64,000 nt of DNA, from IMG/VR virus record IMGVR_UViG_3300003618_000228; one strand, written 5' to 3'. The position numbers and the translations under genes are program-made. The first letter of the stretch is position 1; every line of letters begins with the position of its first letter. Source of the DNA: an uncultured virus (IMG/VR IMGVR_UViG_3300003618_000228). Its lineage: Duplodnaviria > Heunggongvirae > Uroviricota > Caudoviricetes. The notes beneath the pieces are model-generated. The model worked only from the letters and a program-made list of their open reading frames with translations. It searched no databases and was not told the origin of the DNA. This document shows, piece after piece, positions 50,281-56,669 of the stretch.

Positions 50281-51306
50281 ATGAGTACAGATAATTTATT
50301 CAATAAAATAGCAGTATGTACAGACATTCATTTTGGTAATAAAAGCAACTCTTTAACACACAATAAAGATTGCGAAGATTTTGTAGATTGGTTCATAGCA
50401 ACCGCACAAGAAAACAATTGCGAAACTGCCATATTTTTGGGAGACTGGCACCATCATAGGGCCAGCATTAATGTCAGCACACTGAACTATAGCCTGCGTA
50501 GTTTGGAAAAACTAGGCACTTCGTTTGATAATTTTTATTTTATCACTGGCAATCACGACCTATATTATAGAGATAGGCGTGATCTCAATAGTGTAGAGTT
50601 TGCTAGTAGATTTAAAGGTATTACAATAGTAAATGAACCGTTTAATGCGGGAAATTGTGCTATTGTGCCTTGGCTTGTGGGTGATGATTACAAAAAACTA
50701 AAAAAAGTAAAAGCAAAATATATCTTTGGACATTTTGAATTACCACATTTCTATATGAATGCAATGATACAAATGCCCGAAACTAATGAATTACATGCTG
50801 AAGATATGCATAAAGCAGATTATGTTTTTAGCGGCCACTTTCATAAAAGACAACAACGCAAGAATGTTGTATATGTAGGCAATTGTTTCCCACACAACTA
50901 CAGTGATGCTTGGGATGATGATCGTGGGATGATGATGTTGGAGTGGGATGGTGAGCCAGAGTTTGTTGCGTGGCCTGATGCACCATCATATAAAACATTA
51001 AAATTATCGCAGTTATTGGATGATCCTAGTAGCTATCTAACTGATAAAACTTATGCTCGAGTTGTTATGGATATCGACATTTCTTATGAAGAGGCAAACT
51101 ATGTTAAGGAAACATTTGCTGAACAATTTAAAATGCGTGAGTTAAGTTTATTACCAGATAAAGAGAAACTAGATTTAGATATATTAAATGAAGATATAGA
51201 GTTAAATTTTGACAGCATTGACTCTATAGTTATAGACCAACTTTCTAATATTGAGAGTGAACATTACGATCCACAAATGCTACTAGACATATATAGGAGC
51301 ATTTAA
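50281..51306 (+). CDS. gp47: Recombination endonuclease subunit (gp47 / Mre11 / SbcD-like)
   Basis: TDIHFG, FLGDWHH, TGNHD, FGHFE and FSGHFH metallophosphoesterase motifs. Confidence 0.93.
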   Translation: MSTDNLFNKIAVCTDIHFGNKSNSLTHNKDCEDFVDWFIATAQENNCETAIFLGDWHHHRASINVSTLNYSLRSLEKLGTSFDNFYFITGNHDLYYRDRRDLNSVEFASRFKGITIVNEPFNAGNCAIVPWLVGDDYKKLKKVKAKYIFGHFELPHFYMNAMIQMPETNELHAEDMHKADYVFSGHFHKRQQRKNVVYVGNCFPHNYSDAWDDDRGMMMLEWDGEPEFVAWPDAPSYKTLKLSQLLDDPSSYLTDKTYARVVMDIDISYEEANYVKETFAEQFKMRELSLLPDKEKLDLDILNEDIELNFDSIDSIVIDQLSNIESEHYDPQMLLDIYRSI

Positions 51307-53063
51307 TGCTCGTCCTAAAGAATTTAACAGTTAAGAATTTTATGAGCGTGGGTAATCAAACCCAAGCAGTAAATCTAAACAGACAAGATCTCACATTAGT
51401 ATTGGGTGAGAATTTGGACTTGGGTGGTGATGATGCAGGTGCTCGTAATGGCACTGGAAAAACTACTATTGTTAATGCATTGAGTTATGTGTTGTATGGT
51501 TCAGCATTAACTAATATTAAAAAAGATAACCTCATAAACAAAACTAATGGTAAAAACATGTTAGTTACTGTTGAGTATGAGAAGGATGGTCAAGACTATC
51601 GTATAGAGCGTGGGAGACGGCCCGCTACATTAAAATATTTTAAGCAAGATGAAGAAAGTTCAGCACAAGGTGAAAATAGGCAAACACAAGAAGAAATAGA
51701 ACGAGATATAGGGTTGGGACATACTATATTCAAACATATAGTAGCACTTAATACATACACTGAACCATTTTTAGCGATGCGTGTTGCAGATCAACGCGAA
51801 GTAATTGAAGAACTATTGGGTATAACTTTGTTGAGCGAGAAGGCAGAAAGTTTAAGAGAAGTAGTTAAAGTAACCAAAGATAAAATAACTGAAGAAGAAT
51901 ACGCAATAAAAGGCATAATAAAAGCAAATGAAAGTATAGAGACAACAATAAACAGTTTAAGATTAAAACAAAAAGTATGGGAAGAATCAAAAAATATAGA
52001 AATAGATAAACTAAACAATGCTATTGATAAATTAGTAGCGGTGAATATAGAGGATGAATTAGCATTACATACTAAAAAAGCAAATGTTGAAAAAATAGAA
52101 TCTAAATTACGTAGTTATGAACGTGAGCGTAAAACATCAGAGAGTTCATTAAAAAAGTATGAGAGAGAACTTAAAAATTATAATACTAATTTAGCGTCAG
52201 CGGAAGAGAAAAAATGTCATGCTTGTGGACAACCATTACATGATGAATTACATCAAGAAATGCTTTTAGATATTAACACTGAAATAAATGAACATAAAAG
52301 CACAATAAAAAAGGAAAAGAAAAAATTAAAATCTATAACTAAAAAGATAGACGAAATAGACAATACAGATCTTGGAATAGAAACTTTTTATGAAACTATA
52401 GCAGATGCTTATAAACATGATTCAAGTTTAGAGTATTTAAAAAAGGAATTAGCAGATAAAATAAAGTCAACTGATCCATTTAATAGCCAAATTGAAGATT
52501 TACAAGATTCAGTATTACAAGAAGTAAATTATGATAAATTAAATAAGATAGTAAGATTACAAGAACACCAAGAGTTTTTATTGCGTTTGCTTGTTAATAA
52601 AGATTCATTTATACGCAAGCGTATTATAGACCAAAATTTGGCATTCTTGAATAAACGTTTAAGTTATTATTTAGATAGAATAGGATTACCACATACTGTG
52701 GAGTTCCAAAATGATTTAAGTGTTGAGATAATGGAATATGGACGAGACTTAGACTTTGATAATTTAAGCAGGGGCGAACGCAACAGACTTATATTAAGTT
52801 TAAGTTGGGCATTTAGAGATGTTTGGGAACATTTATATAGTAATATAAATTTATTAATTATAGATGAATTAGTAGATAGTGGGATGGATACACTAGGATT
52901 AGAAGGTGCGATAAGCATACTTAAAAAAGTTTCTAGAGATAGACAGAAAAGTGTGTTCTTAATATCCCATAAAGATGAACTGGCGGGGCGTGTTCATAGC
53001 GTTTTGACAGTTACAAAAGAGAACGGATTCACAAATTACAGTGATGACGTGGAGATAATGTAA
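51306..53063 (+). CDS. gp46: Recombination ATPase subunit (gp46 / Rad50 / SbcC-like)
   Basis: KNFMSVG, Walker A NGTGKT, coiled coil with CHAC zinc hook, LSRGE signature, LLIIDE Walker B and ISH. Confidence 0.95.
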   Translation: MLVLKNLTVKNFMSVGNQTQAVNLNRQDLTLVLGENLDLGGDDAGARNGTGKTTIVNALSYVLYGSALTNIKKDNLINKTNGKNMLVTVEYEKDGQDYRIERGRRPATLKYFKQDEESSAQGENRQTQEEIERDIGLGHTIFKHIVALNTYTEPFLAMRVADQREVIEELLGITLLSEKAESLREVVKVTKDKITEEEYAIKGIIKANESIETTINSLRLKQKVWEESKNIEIDKLNNAIDKLVAVNIEDELALHTKKANVEKIESKLRSYERERKTSESSLKKYERELKNYNTNLASAEEKKCHACGQPLHDELHQEMLLDINTEINEHKSTIKKEKKKLKSITKKIDEIDNTDLGIETFYETIADAYKHDSSLEYLKKELADKIKSTDPFNSQIEDLQDSVLQEVNYDKLNKIVRLQEHQEFLLRLLVNKDSFIRKRIIDQNLAFLNKRLSYYLDRIGLPHTVEFQNDLSVEIMEYGRDLDFDNLSRGERNRLILSLSWAFRDVWEHLYSNINLLIIDELVDSGMDTLGLEGAISILKKVSRDRQKSVFLISHKDELAGRVHSVLTVTKENGFTNYSDDVEIM

Positions 53064-53088: not shown

Positions 53089-53268
53089 ATGTCGACAATA
53101 CATGAGCAAATTTTAGATCAAGTAGACAGTTATTTGAAAGAATCAGCAAAATTCGAAGATAAAGGTGTAAAGGCGGCCGCCGCCCGTGCTCGTAAAGCAC
53201 TAGGTGAAATAGGCAAACTATCTAAAGCACGTAGAGCAGAAATTCAAGATAAGAAAAACTCTATGTAA
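53089..53268 (+). CDS. Small histone H1-like (Hc1-family-like) protein, 59 aa (below the ORF-track cutoff)
   Basis: MSTIHEQILDQVDSYLKESAKFEDKGVKAAAARARKALGEIGKLSKARRAEIQDKKNSM*. AAGGAG SD, upstream TAAATA and a TAATG overlap with the next gene. Confidence 0.75.
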   Translation: MSTIHEQILDQVDSYLKESAKFEDKGVKAAAARARKALGEIGKLSKARRAEIQDKKNSM

Positions 53269-53855
53269 TGCCTAGTAAGCAAAAAATAAAAGGCGCCACG
53301 TGGGAACGAGATGTTGCAAAACATCTAACAGAATTATATGGTGAAACATTTATTCGAGTTCCTCATAGTGGAGCTTACATCGGCGGATCAAACAAAGTAC
53401 GTAAACAATACCTACATGAGGGAGTAATAAGAACCTTTAAAGGAGATATTATTCCAGGGCCTAGTATGCCCTATTTAAATGTAGAATGTAAAGCATATAA
53501 AGATTTCCCCTTCCATCACTTGCTTACAGGTGATGCAAAATTATTAGATGAATGGATTAATCAAGTATTAGATTCAGCAGATGAACATGACTTCAATATG
53601 TTAATAATGAAGTTTAATCGAAAAGGCAAATACGTAGCAATAGAAGACAAACATTTACATCATAGATTTAAAAGGCACATTAATTACAAAGGATGGAATT
53701 TTAGTGAATACGACCAATTCTGGAAACTAAATTCCAAAACAGTAAGATTACAATCAGCGATAAAAAAAAGGCAAATTAAATATAATATGAAATCAATAAC
53801 ACAACCCACTTTTGGCTCCCATAGGCAAGTAAAAGAAACTAACATAGCAACCTAA
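53268..53855 (+). CDS. Holliday junction resolvase-like PD-(D/E)xK nuclease (Hjc-type)
   Basis: KQKIKGATWERDVA...RVPHSGA...GDII...VECKAY. The last ~30 aa may be a spurious extension over the downstream RNA. Confidence 0.8.
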   Translation: MPSKQKIKGATWERDVAKHLTELYGETFIRVPHSGAYIGGSNKVRKQYLHEGVIRTFKGDIIPGPSMPYLNVECKAYKDFPFHHLLTGDAKLLDEWINQVLDSADEHDFNMLIMKFNRKGKYVAIEDKHLHHRFKRHINYKGWNFSEYDQFWKLNSKTVRLQSAIKKRQIKYNMKSITQPTFGSHRQVKETNIAT

Positions 53856-54170
53856 ACGCAGTTAAGAGCTGCTCGCCTCGAGCACGTAGCATAGGCACGT
53901 GAGTACAAGAATTGGCGAAGTTGCAACCCAGGCTAAGGGCGCCAAAAGATGTGGATACAAGAAAAAGAAACCACAACTATTTTAATGTTGATACTATAGC
54001 ATTAAAGTAGTCCCGCTATGACGAAAGTCAGAAGTCTGAGGTAGGGGGTACAGGGTAACCGCCTCCGTGCTAACGCAATCCTCAATAGTATATAATGAGT
54101 TAAACGATGGAAAAAGTACTCATGCTTCTCCTCACCAGGAGAAGTGTGAATAAAACTTCGGGAAAAAGAT
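53790..54170 (+). ncRNA. Putative large structured non-coding RNA of unknown family
   Basis: At least 10 helices readable by eye, including long-range pairs, a GAAA tetraloop and a 7-bp pseudoknot. GC-richer than its flanks, with TAAATA/TATAAT at 53777-86 upstream. Boundaries approximate. Confidence 0.7.
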
Positions 54171-54238
54171 AACAAATAAATATTACTAAACGTTCAAGGT
54201 TCGAATGTAATGAAGAACCAGTTGAACGTAGTTCAACT

Positions 54239-54946
54239 ATGCAATATACATACGAAACACACTTCGGAAAACAAGAAACTCGAAATGTAATAATAAATTA
54301 TGTAAGTTTACGCAACGTAGATCCACGGGAAGAATATCTAGCACTTGAAAAGGGATTTGCTTTAGATATTGTTAAAGGTAAAGAAGAATGGTTCATGTCG
54401 CGTAATACGCGAATTAAATTATCAGAAACAAATTATGATAAGTTAGATTGGCAGTTGGGGTTAGCATGGCATTCAAATATAAAAGAAATGCCTAGTATGT
54501 TTCAAAACATTTTAACAAAGTATATACATCATAATAATTTCAAAAACATTTGGACTGTTAATGAAGATCATGATCGGTACCGATATATTTTATATTATCA
54601 TAAAGGTAATATAGTGGCAATAACTAAAATGCTTCATTATCATCCACCATTTCCATTTGCTGATCATGACATATTAGAAACAAACTTTTTTATATGGAAT
54701 TATCATGAACCTGAATTACATTTAGGAACTCTGACATTGGAACATGAGATTGCTTGGGCAAAAGAATTAGGTTTAAAGTATTTGTATACTGGTCCTGGAT
54801 ATGAGCAAAGTAGCATATACAAATCCAAATTCGACGGTTTTCAATGGTTTAACGGAATGGAATGGAGCACCGACGTGGAAAAGTATACACTACTTTGTCA
54901 ACGGGATAGTAAAATACGGAGTTTTAAAGCGTATACTGAGATTTAA
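54239..54946 (+). CDS. Aminoacyl-tRNA-protein transferase-like (ATE1/Bpt C-terminal, GNAT fold) protein
   Basis: LGTLTLEHEIAWAKELGLKYLYTGPGY...IYKSKF resembles the ATE_C motif LGxxxxLxxIxxAxxxGxxYxYLGY...YKxxF. The N-terminal ALEKGF...RNTRI resembles ATE_N. Confidence 0.65.
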   Translation: MQYTYETHFGKQETRNVIINYVSLRNVDPREEYLALEKGFALDIVKGKEEWFMSRNTRIKLSETNYDKLDWQLGLAWHSNIKEMPSMFQNILTKYIHHNNFKNIWTVNEDHDRYRYILYYHKGNIVAITKMLHYHPPFPFADHDILETNFFIWNYHEPELHLGTLTLEHEIAWAKELGLKYLYTGPGYEQSSIYKSKFDGFQWFNGMEWSTDVEKYTLLCQRDSKIRSFKAYTEI

Positions 54947-55823: not shown

Positions 55824-56669
55824 TTATACGAAAAAACTTGAATAATCAAATAGTAATGGCATATTTGATTCGTGTTCACATTCAGGACATGTTATAACTA
55901 CAGGAGCAAGTGCTGTTTTTTCTCGTATTGTTTCCAATGTAGCAGTAATTTTATTAAACAATTTTATACTAGTGTTATTAACAAAATCTATTATTTCTTC
56001 TTTGTTTACAACAAGTTGTCCGTCTGGTAATTCTATACCATGGATTCCAGAAGTTATAGTACTAATATTAATATCAGTCATATTTTTAAGTATTTTATTA
56101 TATATTTCTTTTACTTCGTCTGGATCCATACCCTCAGAATTAGATGCTAGTTGTATTGCTTGTTGTTCTTCAAAAGCTCTTCGTTGCAATAATGATAATT
56201 CTAAATAAGATAATGGTTTAATATGAACTTTTATTTCTCCATACGTGATAATAGTAAGTTCATTATTGAATGTAATATTGCTTAATTTGTCAATGTATCC
56301 ATCCAAATTTAATCCTACAACATGTTCATGATTGCATTCACCACATGTTTGTTCTATTTCCATTTGGTTACCATATGATGCTATACGTATTGCTATTAAA
56401 ATGTAATCAACATCAGATGCTGGCATTGACCATGCATCTTTGATACTTGGAATACAACTTTGAATAACTTGCGCTACTGCCTCTCCAGATATTAACGCGT
56501 CTGGTGTTTTGATGATAATATCATCCTTTGCTGTCATTGGATATACTGGTACTTCTCCCGTTGCTGGCATCTCCAGCGTGCCTTCTGGATAAAATTGCCC
56601 TCCACTTGGTAATGTGATGTATATCTCTGGTTGCCTATAATATTGTATTAGGACACTATCTGTACTCAT
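55824..56669 (-). CDS. Baseplate hub assembly protein (gp26-like)
   Basis: YRQPEIYITLPSGG...PMTAKDD...DVDYILIAIRIASYG; two CxxC pairs (CGEC, CPEC). Confidence 0.75.
   Translation of the reverse strand: MSTDSVLIQYYRQPEIYITLPSGGQFYPEGTLEMPATGEVPVYPMTAKDDIIIKTPDALISGEAVAQVIQSCIPSIKDAWSMPASDVDYILIAIRIASYGNQMEIEQTCGECNHEHVVGLNLDGYIDKLSNITFNNELTIITYGEIKVHIKPLSYLELSLLQRRAFEEQQAIQLASNSEGMDPDEVKEIYNKILKNMTDINISTITSGIHGIELPDGQLVVNKEEIIDFVNNTSIKLFNKITATLETIREKTALAPVVITCPECEHESNMPLLFDYSSFFV

Follow-up and report, generated by a model that had tools for sequence, protein, structure and literature searches.

A conserved ~440-nt structured RNA encoded by uncultured T4-like large phages

What is encoded in the GC-enriched gap that separates a resolvase-type endonuclease gene from a 235-aa open reading frame (ORF) in an uncultured T4-like phage? 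The gap lies in the IMG/VR virus record IMGVR_UViG_3300003618_000228 (322,647 bp, estimated completeness 90%), from which a stretch of 64,000 nt, here called the window, was analysed at its full length. An initial annotation had placed there, at 53790-54170, a large, ornate non-coding phage RNA with a pseudoknot on the + strand, and this proposal was strongly supported by covariation. We found that the window encodes a highly structured RNA of ~440 nt at 53800-54238 (+), and that the RNA family is conserved in >100 contigs of uncultured large T4-like phages, sampled in marine and other metagenomes. In our preferred reading, which is given a probability of about 0.6, it is a stand-alone, trans-acting RNA, whose invariant junction core and pseudoknot would serve as active or binding site.

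Folding of 53790-54170 on the + strand resulted in a minimum free energy (MFE) of -112.4 kcal/mol (z = -4.81), which was reached by 0 of 100 shuffles, while for the - strand 3 of 100 shuffles were as good (z = -1.96). The GC content across 53800-54199 was 0.40-0.44 compared to 0.27-0.34 in the flanks, so that the dense helices and the GC enrichment noticed earlier were both recovered; also, every sequence string quoted at that time was found where it had been placed. Two G-U wobbles of the junction core were near-invariant among 90 homologous sequences (GU in 83, UG in 89). Since they would become A-C mismatches on the opposite strand, the + strand is the RNA strand, in agreement with the earlier argument from G-U pairs. 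The interval 53790-54170 indeed holds structured RNA, but the element continues beyond it to 54238, as follows from a conserved 3' module at 54198-54238. The description of the gap as free of ORFs needs a correction, as the resolvase ORF (53268-53855) enters the proposed interval by 66 nt; its last ~29 codons, though, are unmatched in homologues. A protein-coding reading of the gap was rejected, because its ORFs comprise just 32-57 aa and indels of 1, 2 and 4 nt separate the homologues. Over its ~440 nt the RNA contains more than 15 helices, the pseudoknot and many invariant unpaired bases.

For the comparison, homologous loci were collected in two rounds. A protein search with the resolvase led to 15 viral loci, and in 13 of them the RNA was detected after the gene by blastn; the exceptions were L015, which is incomplete at its end, and L016, where the gap measures only ~78 nt. 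With a first-round pattern of 23 letters, taken from the stretch of highest conservation, 21 viral loci and 33 from metagenomes were obtained. They represent 36 distinct sequences in about eight clades, including one chance match; L068 from the metagenome scan, which scored 9.4 bits, was discarded because it matched the core pattern by chance. In the first-round alignments, stems and pseudoknot alike already showed compensatory changes by eye. No other string of the family is as conserved as the loop of the central hairpin (family-wide form of the hairpin GCUCUGnGAAAnAGAUnCAACC), and the loop pattern GCTCTGNGAAANAGATNCAACC was present in at least 120 viral stretches, 80 of which were analysed.

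Two covariance models were built. Model R1 (3' domain; 207 positions, 52 pairs) was derived from eleven sequences of two clades with a structure set by hand, because RNAalifold, applied to the first MAFFT alignment, picked the pseudoknot over the 14-bp stem due to a one-column offset. Model R2 (5' domain; 145 positions, 32 pairs) was based on a MAFFT seed alignment with register errors and realigned clades A and B only in part. R1 matched at full length in all 33 first-round sources (E 1e-10 to 1e-64), and R2 had a match in 33 of 35 sources. Of the GCTCTGNGAAANAGATNCAACC loci, 75 of 80 were matched by R1 directly downstream of the pattern and 80 of 80 by R2, some of them only over the hairpin. 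The window scored 217 bits with R1 and 88 bits with R2, but it was a seed of both models, so that these scores arise by construction and independent support comes from the matches in other clades. By the definition of the family the window is a member, with R1 at full length, the central hairpin and the 3' module. A large R1 alignment was assembled from 93 sources of both rounds, leaving out duplicates and cut-off loci, and comprised 90 distinct sequences at E <= 1e-5.

The 3' domain comprises the following parts in the window:

53976-54011 (+): 14-bp hairpin, 53976-89/53998-54011 (R1 helices 1-2)
53991-97 (+): 5' strand of the pseudoknot, ATACTAT, in the loop of the 14-bp hairpin
54019-54030 (+): TGAC-GAAA-GTCA hairpin, a variable or optional insertion (helix 3)
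54031-54159 (+): closing helix, GAAGT 54031-35/ACTTC 54155-59 (helix 4)
54037-54084 (+): three-way junction with TGAGG 54037-41/CCTCA 54080-84 (helices 5-8)
54040-54066 (+): near-invariant core GGUAGGGrGUACAGGnnAACCGCyUCC inside the three-way junction
54068-77 (+): variable hairpin inside the three-way junction
54085-54091 (+): 3' strand of the pseudoknot, ATAGTAT, directly 3' of helix 54037-41/54080-84
54095-54123 (+): hairpin ATGAGT/ACTCAT, length varying by clade (helices 9-10)
54124-54145 (+): 9-bp hairpin, GCTTCTCCT 54124-32/AGGAGAAGT 54137-45 (helix 11), with a GNRA cap in most clades, followed by conserved GU(A/G)UGA

Pairing in this domain was maintained while the sequence changed. In the first-round R1 alignment 90.4% of the cells were paired compared to 44-50% with slid partners, and 35 of 52 pairs had changed on both sides; in the 90-sequence alignment the values were 89.4% against 42-50% and 41 of 52 pairs, and its covariation score was reached by 0 of 500 shuffles. 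Thereby the covariation among homologues, on which the initial annotation had made its case depend, was found. Most of the individual helices proposed for this domain held as well: 12 of 13 pairs of the 14-bp stem had changed on both sides, the TGAGG/CCTCA helix with its two inner hairpins was paired in 88-99.6% of the cells, the closing helix in 75.6% (4/5 pairs changed on both sides), and the 9-bp helix in 94.4% (compensatory changes in 7/9 pairs). For the hairpin at 54095-54123, 81-85% of the cells were paired and 5/5 pairs showed compensatory changes. The TGAC-GAAA-GTCA hairpin is real, with compensatory changes in 4/4 pairs where it is present, but optional across the family (gaps in 40-60 of the 90 rows). 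In contrast, a proposed long-range helix TCCC 54011-14/GGGA 54160-63 was dropped, as other clades do not conserve it and T54011 already belongs to the 14-bp stem. The three junction copies of GAAAAAG that had been pointed out exist (53961-67, 54110-16, 54162-68), but only the first is conserved family-wide. As a clade-specific variation, an insertion of ~50 nt in L022:642-900 forms an extra hairpin in the arm that matches 54095-54123 of the window.

The pseudoknot between the loop of the 14-bp hairpin and 54085-91, also part of the initial proposal, withstood the comparison. Complementarity was found in every first-round clade with sequences differing each time (ATACTAT/ATAGTAT, AAACTGT/ACAGTTT, CTGATAT/ATATCAG, GTAAGAT/ATCTTAC, GTCTATTC/GAATAGAT, CTAGTAT/ATACTAG, GCTAATTA/TAATTAGT). 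Among the 90 sequences there were 55 distinct complementary pairs, and at least six contiguous complementary bases were present in 66. The mean complementary run was 6.4 compared to 4.3 for non-cognate pairs or shuffled loops; short runs were mostly due to misextracted loops.

The 5' domain and the central hairpin consist of these parts:

53809-53948 (+): tentative outer helix of the MFE fold, CTTTTGGC 53809-16/GCCAAAAG 53941-48, enclosing the 5' domain
53847-53924 (+): 5' domain junction, outermost helix GCAAC 53847-51/GTTGC 53920-24
53858-61/53869-72 (+): hairpin GCAG/CTGC inside this junction (helix table)
53874-77/53914-17 (+): helix CGCC/GGCG inside this junction (helix table)
53883-87/53897-901 (+): hairpin CACGT/ACGTG inside this junction (helix table)
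53927-53939 (+): small hairpin CCC 53927-29/GGG 53937-39; a stem of 4-5 bp capped by the loop UAACUnnAG in most clades
53950-53975 (+): central hairpin TGTGG 53950-54/CCACA 53971-75 with an A-rich loop (GAAAAAG...)

In the R2 alignment 63.4% of the cells were paired compared to 30-45% with slid partners. This value understates the pairing of the 5' domain because of the register errors in the seed alignment, and a hand-curated helix table checked by script was used instead. According to this table, six helices between 53847 and 53975 keep their order in 10 of 11 clade representatives (the eleventh was incompletely extracted), while their complementary sequences differ. The stems of the small hairpin, for example, differ between clades and yet remain complementary (GAAC/GTTC, TTGC/GCAA, GAAAC/GTTTC, GGCT/GGCT), and those of the central hairpin covary (GTGG/CCAC, GCGG/CCGC, GGGG/CCCC, CGAGG/CCTCG). 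Thus, two helices suggested earlier, CACGT/ACGTG and TGTGG/CCACA, were confirmed across clades, while a suggested competing helix TTGGCG 53912-17/CGCCAA 53940-45 was not, since the comparison pairs GGCG 53914-17 with CGCC 53874-77 instead. The outer helix CTTTTGGC/GCCAAAAG is invariant in the clade of the window, has an analogous pairing by eye in clade C and is absent in sister clade B. A further clade-specific insertion, of ~30 nt, is located in the central-hairpin loop of L067:760-1176.

The RNA ends with one more conserved part:

54198-54238 (+): 3' module of two abutting hairpins, A and B, ending at the ATG of the next ORF

The module follows the 3' domain at a distance of 20-70 nt and was detected there in 72 of the 90 sequences with a strict detector, with 40 distinct stems per hairpin. 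Hairpin A of the window has the stem GGTTC/GAACC, whose internal loop GA...GAA is followed by an inner stem of 2 bp; family-wide, the internal loop is (U)GA...GAA and surrounds a 2-bp stem with its tetraloop. Hairpin B directly abuts it with AGTTGAAC-GTA-GTTCAACT; family-wide, a stem of 6-8 bp carries a loop that is usually GUA or GAA. The module occurs once in the window, and a generic phage terminator was rejected because of this uniqueness. A hammerhead ribozyme was rejected as well: there is no Rfam match, the base at the C3 position varies and a third stem is missing, the hammerhead-like string being only the (U)GA...GAA loop within one hairpin with bases used in the stem. Many second-round members (L087, L108, L124, L126, L129, L137, L151) carry an extra UUCG-capped hairpin (GUGC-UUCG-GCAC, CUGC-UUCG-GCAG) between the 3' domain and the 3' module, which the clade of the window does not have. 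In L100, TTTC follows hairpin B.

Does the RNA belong to a known class? A search of the whole window with Rfam 15 gave no match at the gathering score, and at E <= 10 on 53600-54400 there was only a chance match of 14 bits outside the element and none to a group I intron, group II intron or small-ribozyme family. The models of RNase P RNA, GOLLD, ROOL, OLE, HEARO and raiA had no match in the window, and ARAGORN detected no tRNA or transfer-messenger RNA (tmRNA) in it. The earlier exclusion of tRNA, tmRNA, RNase P RNA and group I/II introns was thereby borne out. For a group I intron, furthermore, the neighbouring ORFs end before or start after the element and the neighbours vary. The family is only partly new. 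While no Rfam model matches the window, the family includes members in which RF01718, the Polynucleobacter-1 motif, takes the place of the 5' domain. RF01718 was found in 4 of 43 distinct second-round loci scanned, with 91.5 bits in L100, 83.2 bits each in L142 and L090, and 38.7 bits in L094 (gathering score 37), and its 141 nt are located immediately 5' of the central hairpin and the R1 domain. At these loci R1 matched at full length in L100 (58.5 bits), L142 (51.2 bits) and L094 (34.9 bits) and up to the contig end in L090. R2 matched only the hairpin there, and therefore RF01718 is regarded as an alternative 5' domain of the same RNA. The record of L094 carries a T4 gp23 gene. RF01718 itself did not match the window at the gathering score or, on 53600-54400, at E <= 10, and it did not match L026, L053 and L040 at E <= 1.

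Judging from these loci, the Polynucleobacter-1 motif is a fragment, namely the 5' domain, of one branch of a larger RNA family. Weinberg et al. (2010; PMC2864571) list this motif as a likely RNA and likely cis-regulatory, with 16 representatives from Burkholderiales and from fresh water or estuary. It shares with the RNA of the window the family, the kind of phage and an obscure function, but its model stops short of the central hairpin and covers neither the pseudoknotted 3' domain nor the 3' module, and the 5' domain of the window is of the other type (R2). The motif was known before, and the ~440-nt phage-borne RNA subsumes it: the obscure Rfam entry of 2010 represents no more than the 5' quarter of a much larger RNA, and this in a single branch, and no description of the ~440-nt RNA was found in the literature searched. 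GOLLD, ROOL and further large ornate RNAs of phages and bacteria (Kretsch et al. 2025; PMC12286853) are likewise large, multi-domain, GNRA-rich, phage-borne RNAs of obscure function that were found from sequence alone, but they match the RNA of the window neither in sequence nor in structure, and the latter is smaller and has no tRNA genes beside it (none in the window).

The RNA is present as a single copy in the 322,647-bp record (R1 search), and across the >100 contigs it is maintained as a syntenic single-copy gene. Genes of the gp23 major capsid protein were located 8.5-10 kb from the RNA in three of the five records that were tested, two of them 340 kb and 289 kb long. Among 50,697 GenBank phage records the RNA was not found by blastn in distant mode with the RNA of the window and its relatives from L019, L026, L053, L126 and L100 as queries, apart from one chance match of 28 nt. 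Also, R1 matched neither L016 nor the record behind it, nor the complete records of Salicola phage SCTP-2, Pseudomonas phage PA5oct and Sinorhizobium phage Phosso, all three of which have a related resolvase. In two of them there are unannotated gaps near the resolvase gene, ~1 kb in Phosso (L073:1987-3000) and 0.66 kb in PA5oct (L072:1479-2141), again with no R1 match. In 185,579 species-representative genomes the core pattern had no match and the central-hairpin pattern six. One of these (L197, a 6-kb contig binned in a Flavobacterium metagenome-assembled genome) carries the whole RNA; the other five were chance matches with no R1 match and with R2 hairpin-only in two and nothing in three.

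In the window the RNA is surrounded by recombination and replication genes (gp46-like SMC, resolvase):

51306-53063: gp46-like SMC/AAA protein gene (context)
53089-53268 (+): Hc1 histone-like protein gene, 59 aa (Pfam E = 1.4e-11), adjoining the resolvase gene on its 5' side
53268-53855 (+): PDDEXK_15 (RusA-like resolvase-type) endonuclease gene (Pfam E = 5.9e-28), upstream context, outside the RNA
54239-54946 (+): 235-aa ORF with a weak, sub-threshold ATE_C match (E = 1.7e-4, 22.6 bits, cut-off 25)
55824-56669, opposite strand: T4 baseplate protein gene (context)

Homologues match residues 1-166 of the resolvase ORF. In the clade of the window this ORF is ~29 codons longer than its homologues (167-177 aa), and the tail (53767-53855), which extends into the 5' part of the RNA, is either a true overlap or a spurious extension. 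An Hc1-type histone H1-like ORF of 59 aa has the same position before the resolvase gene in L006, L007 and L010. ATE_C denotes the C-terminal domain of arginine-tRNA-protein transferase.

Across loci, the genes on both sides change. Among 65 upstream ORFs scanned, which usually are on the same strand as the RNA, 29 encode SegE-type GIY-YIG endonucleases (including those of L077, L084, L087-L089, L091 and L093-L097), 13 PDDEXK_15, 3 DUF454 and 1 NUMOD3, the remainder being 3 of other families (weak Porin_4, PNP_UDP_1, TctC) and 16 with no Pfam match. The 64 downstream ORFs, on either strand, include 8 DUF6614, 3 NUMOD3 (L111, L123, L141), 2 hexapeptide transferases, 2 metallophosphoesterases, 6 of other families and 43 with no match. 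The 235-aa ORF is the downstream neighbour, on the same strand, only in clades A and B; in clades C to G of the first round, a convergent gene follows the RNA. As the downstream neighbour varies in identity and strand, the RNA is regarded as a gene of its own and not as a leader.

The strongest rival explanation is that the RNA is a cis-acting part of an mRNA, either a 3'-untranslated region (UTR) that stabilises or terminates the resolvase or endonuclease transcript, or a riboswitch-like or operator leader of the next gene. The likely cis-regulatory scoring of Polynucleobacter-1 (Weinberg et al. 2010, PMC2864571), the rule of an upstream ORF on the same strand and hairpin B abutting the ATG at 54239 are in its favour, as are transcript data. 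Six RNA runs contained 19-34% of the sampled words of an 801-nt stretch, and contigs from four of these runs, which belong to four studies, covered the RNA and its neighbours at similar depth when placed on 53100-54900. Single contigs span 53100-54017, 53872-54159 and 54007-54323, thereby bridging the upstream genes with the 5' domain and the 3' domain with the downstream ORF; such contigs show presence only and give no ends, strand or level, and DNA carry-over may contribute. However, the downstream gene often lies on the opposite strand and belongs to many unrelated families, so that there is no common regulated gene and no constant same-strand position before one gene class as expected for a riboswitch. 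The upstream gene is not constant either, and a leader or 3' UTR of one particular gene is therefore unlikely. Finally, the size, the number of helices, the pseudoknot and the many invariant unpaired bases far exceed what a terminator or stabiliser needs. Taken together, we consider a cis-acting role unlikely, though it is the most serious of the alternatives.

A role as mobile or self-processing ribozyme tied to homing endonucleases, be it an intron-like element, degenerate or novel, or an RNA that cleaves itself and thereby processes the endonuclease transcript, appears improbable. Group I introns of T4-like phages carry GIY-YIG endonucleases (td/I-TevI and the like), and the RNA of the window resembles them as a pseudoknotted, GNRA-rich RNA beside a GIY-YIG gene. 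Its fold with the conserved junction core recalls large ribozymes, the loop of hairpin A recalls half of a hammerhead core, and endonuclease genes of the SegE type directly upstream (29/65) or with NUMOD3 downstream (3/64) accompany it. Yet it interrupts no gene: no exons are split, the upstream ORF is finished before the element begins, and what follows downstream varies. The endonuclease is encoded outside the RNA, which is complete at many loci where a resolvase gene, and no endonuclease gene, precedes it. Even at E <= 10 there was no match to a group I, group II or small-ribozyme model, and the hammerhead-like string lacks the conserved C3 and has its bases used in a stem. The arrangement rather fits free-standing endonucleases that home next to a conserved target, which is established for the seg genes of T4. 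With endonuclease genes clustered on both sides, the RNA gene gives the impression of a homing hot spot, and the endonucleases presumably settled beside it because its sequence is invariant. That such settlement recurred would suggest a conserved element of importance to the phage.

A purely DNA-level element (replication origin, packaging site or endonuclease recognition region) might be suspected from the position among recombination and replication genes and beside homing endonucleases, but is very improbable in view of compensatory changes that keep pairing including strand-specific, near-invariant G-U wobbles, the folding asymmetry between the strands (z -4.81 vs -1.96), and the pseudoknot and GNRA loops, which are features of RNA.

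This leaves the stand-alone, trans-acting RNA as the preferred reading, and several points weigh against it. The string TAAATA, taken for a late-promoter core, is present at 53777, but a consensus scan found no + strand promoter-like site upstream of the RNA in the window; in favour of a gene of its own, a sigma-70-like site (10/12) precedes the RNA at 444-473 in L100. The unbroken contig 53100-54017 and the similar depth on the neighbours make co-transcription with the upstream genes possible, and since hairpin B ends at the start codon of the next gene in the clade of the window, translational control also fits. Moreover, the alignment of the 5' domain is imperfect (63.4% of cells paired), and pairs were counted on alignments that had been fitted to the structure of the model, which inflates the paired percentages somewhat.

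According to the trans-acting reading, a lineage of uncultured T4-like large and jumbo phages would carry one RNA gene of ~440 nt per genome. The transcript would act in trans during infection, as a ribozyme or as RNA subunit or scaffold of a ribonucleoprotein (RNP), with the invariant junction nucleotides and G-U wobbles forming its active or binding site, and the 3' module would end, protect or stabilise it. The flanking homing endonucleases may use the invariant sequence of the RNA gene as landing site. A trans-acting, structured RNA as part of a phage machine has a precedent in the packaging RNA of phage phi29 (pRNA), but no similarity to it was found, phi29 is another type of phage, and nothing ties the RNA of the window to packaging. 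Few large RNAs combine an intricate fold with many invariant unpaired bases, and those whose role has been worked out (ribosome, RNase P, introns) do basic chemistry. A more far-reaching version can be offered only tentatively: a new class of large phage RNA, of which Polynucleobacter-1 is just a fragment, might be a core gene of a widespread T4-like jumbo lineage and might function as ribozyme or RNP subunit with the three-way-junction/pseudoknot core as active site. With defined boundaries, a secondary structure, a pseudoknot and two covariance models, the RNA is directly testable.

A last observation concerns a short motif, (A/T)AGGCA, which recurs just 5' of the RNA:

53822-53829 (+): TAGGCAAG, one copy of the motif

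At 84 loci with 330 nt of upstream sequence, AGGCA occurred 174 times on the RNA strand and its reverse complement 6 times, with a peak ~20-30 nt before the 5' domain; the window at large showed no enrichment. TAGGCA as a general phage promoter was rejected, as the 64 kb contain 15 copies on one strand and 16 on the other, where ~11 are estimated by chance. The motif may belong to a leader, mark a transcript start or a processing site, or bind a protein. In the window it recurs within 53768-53829, and in L100 two copies lie between the sigma-70-like site and the RNA.

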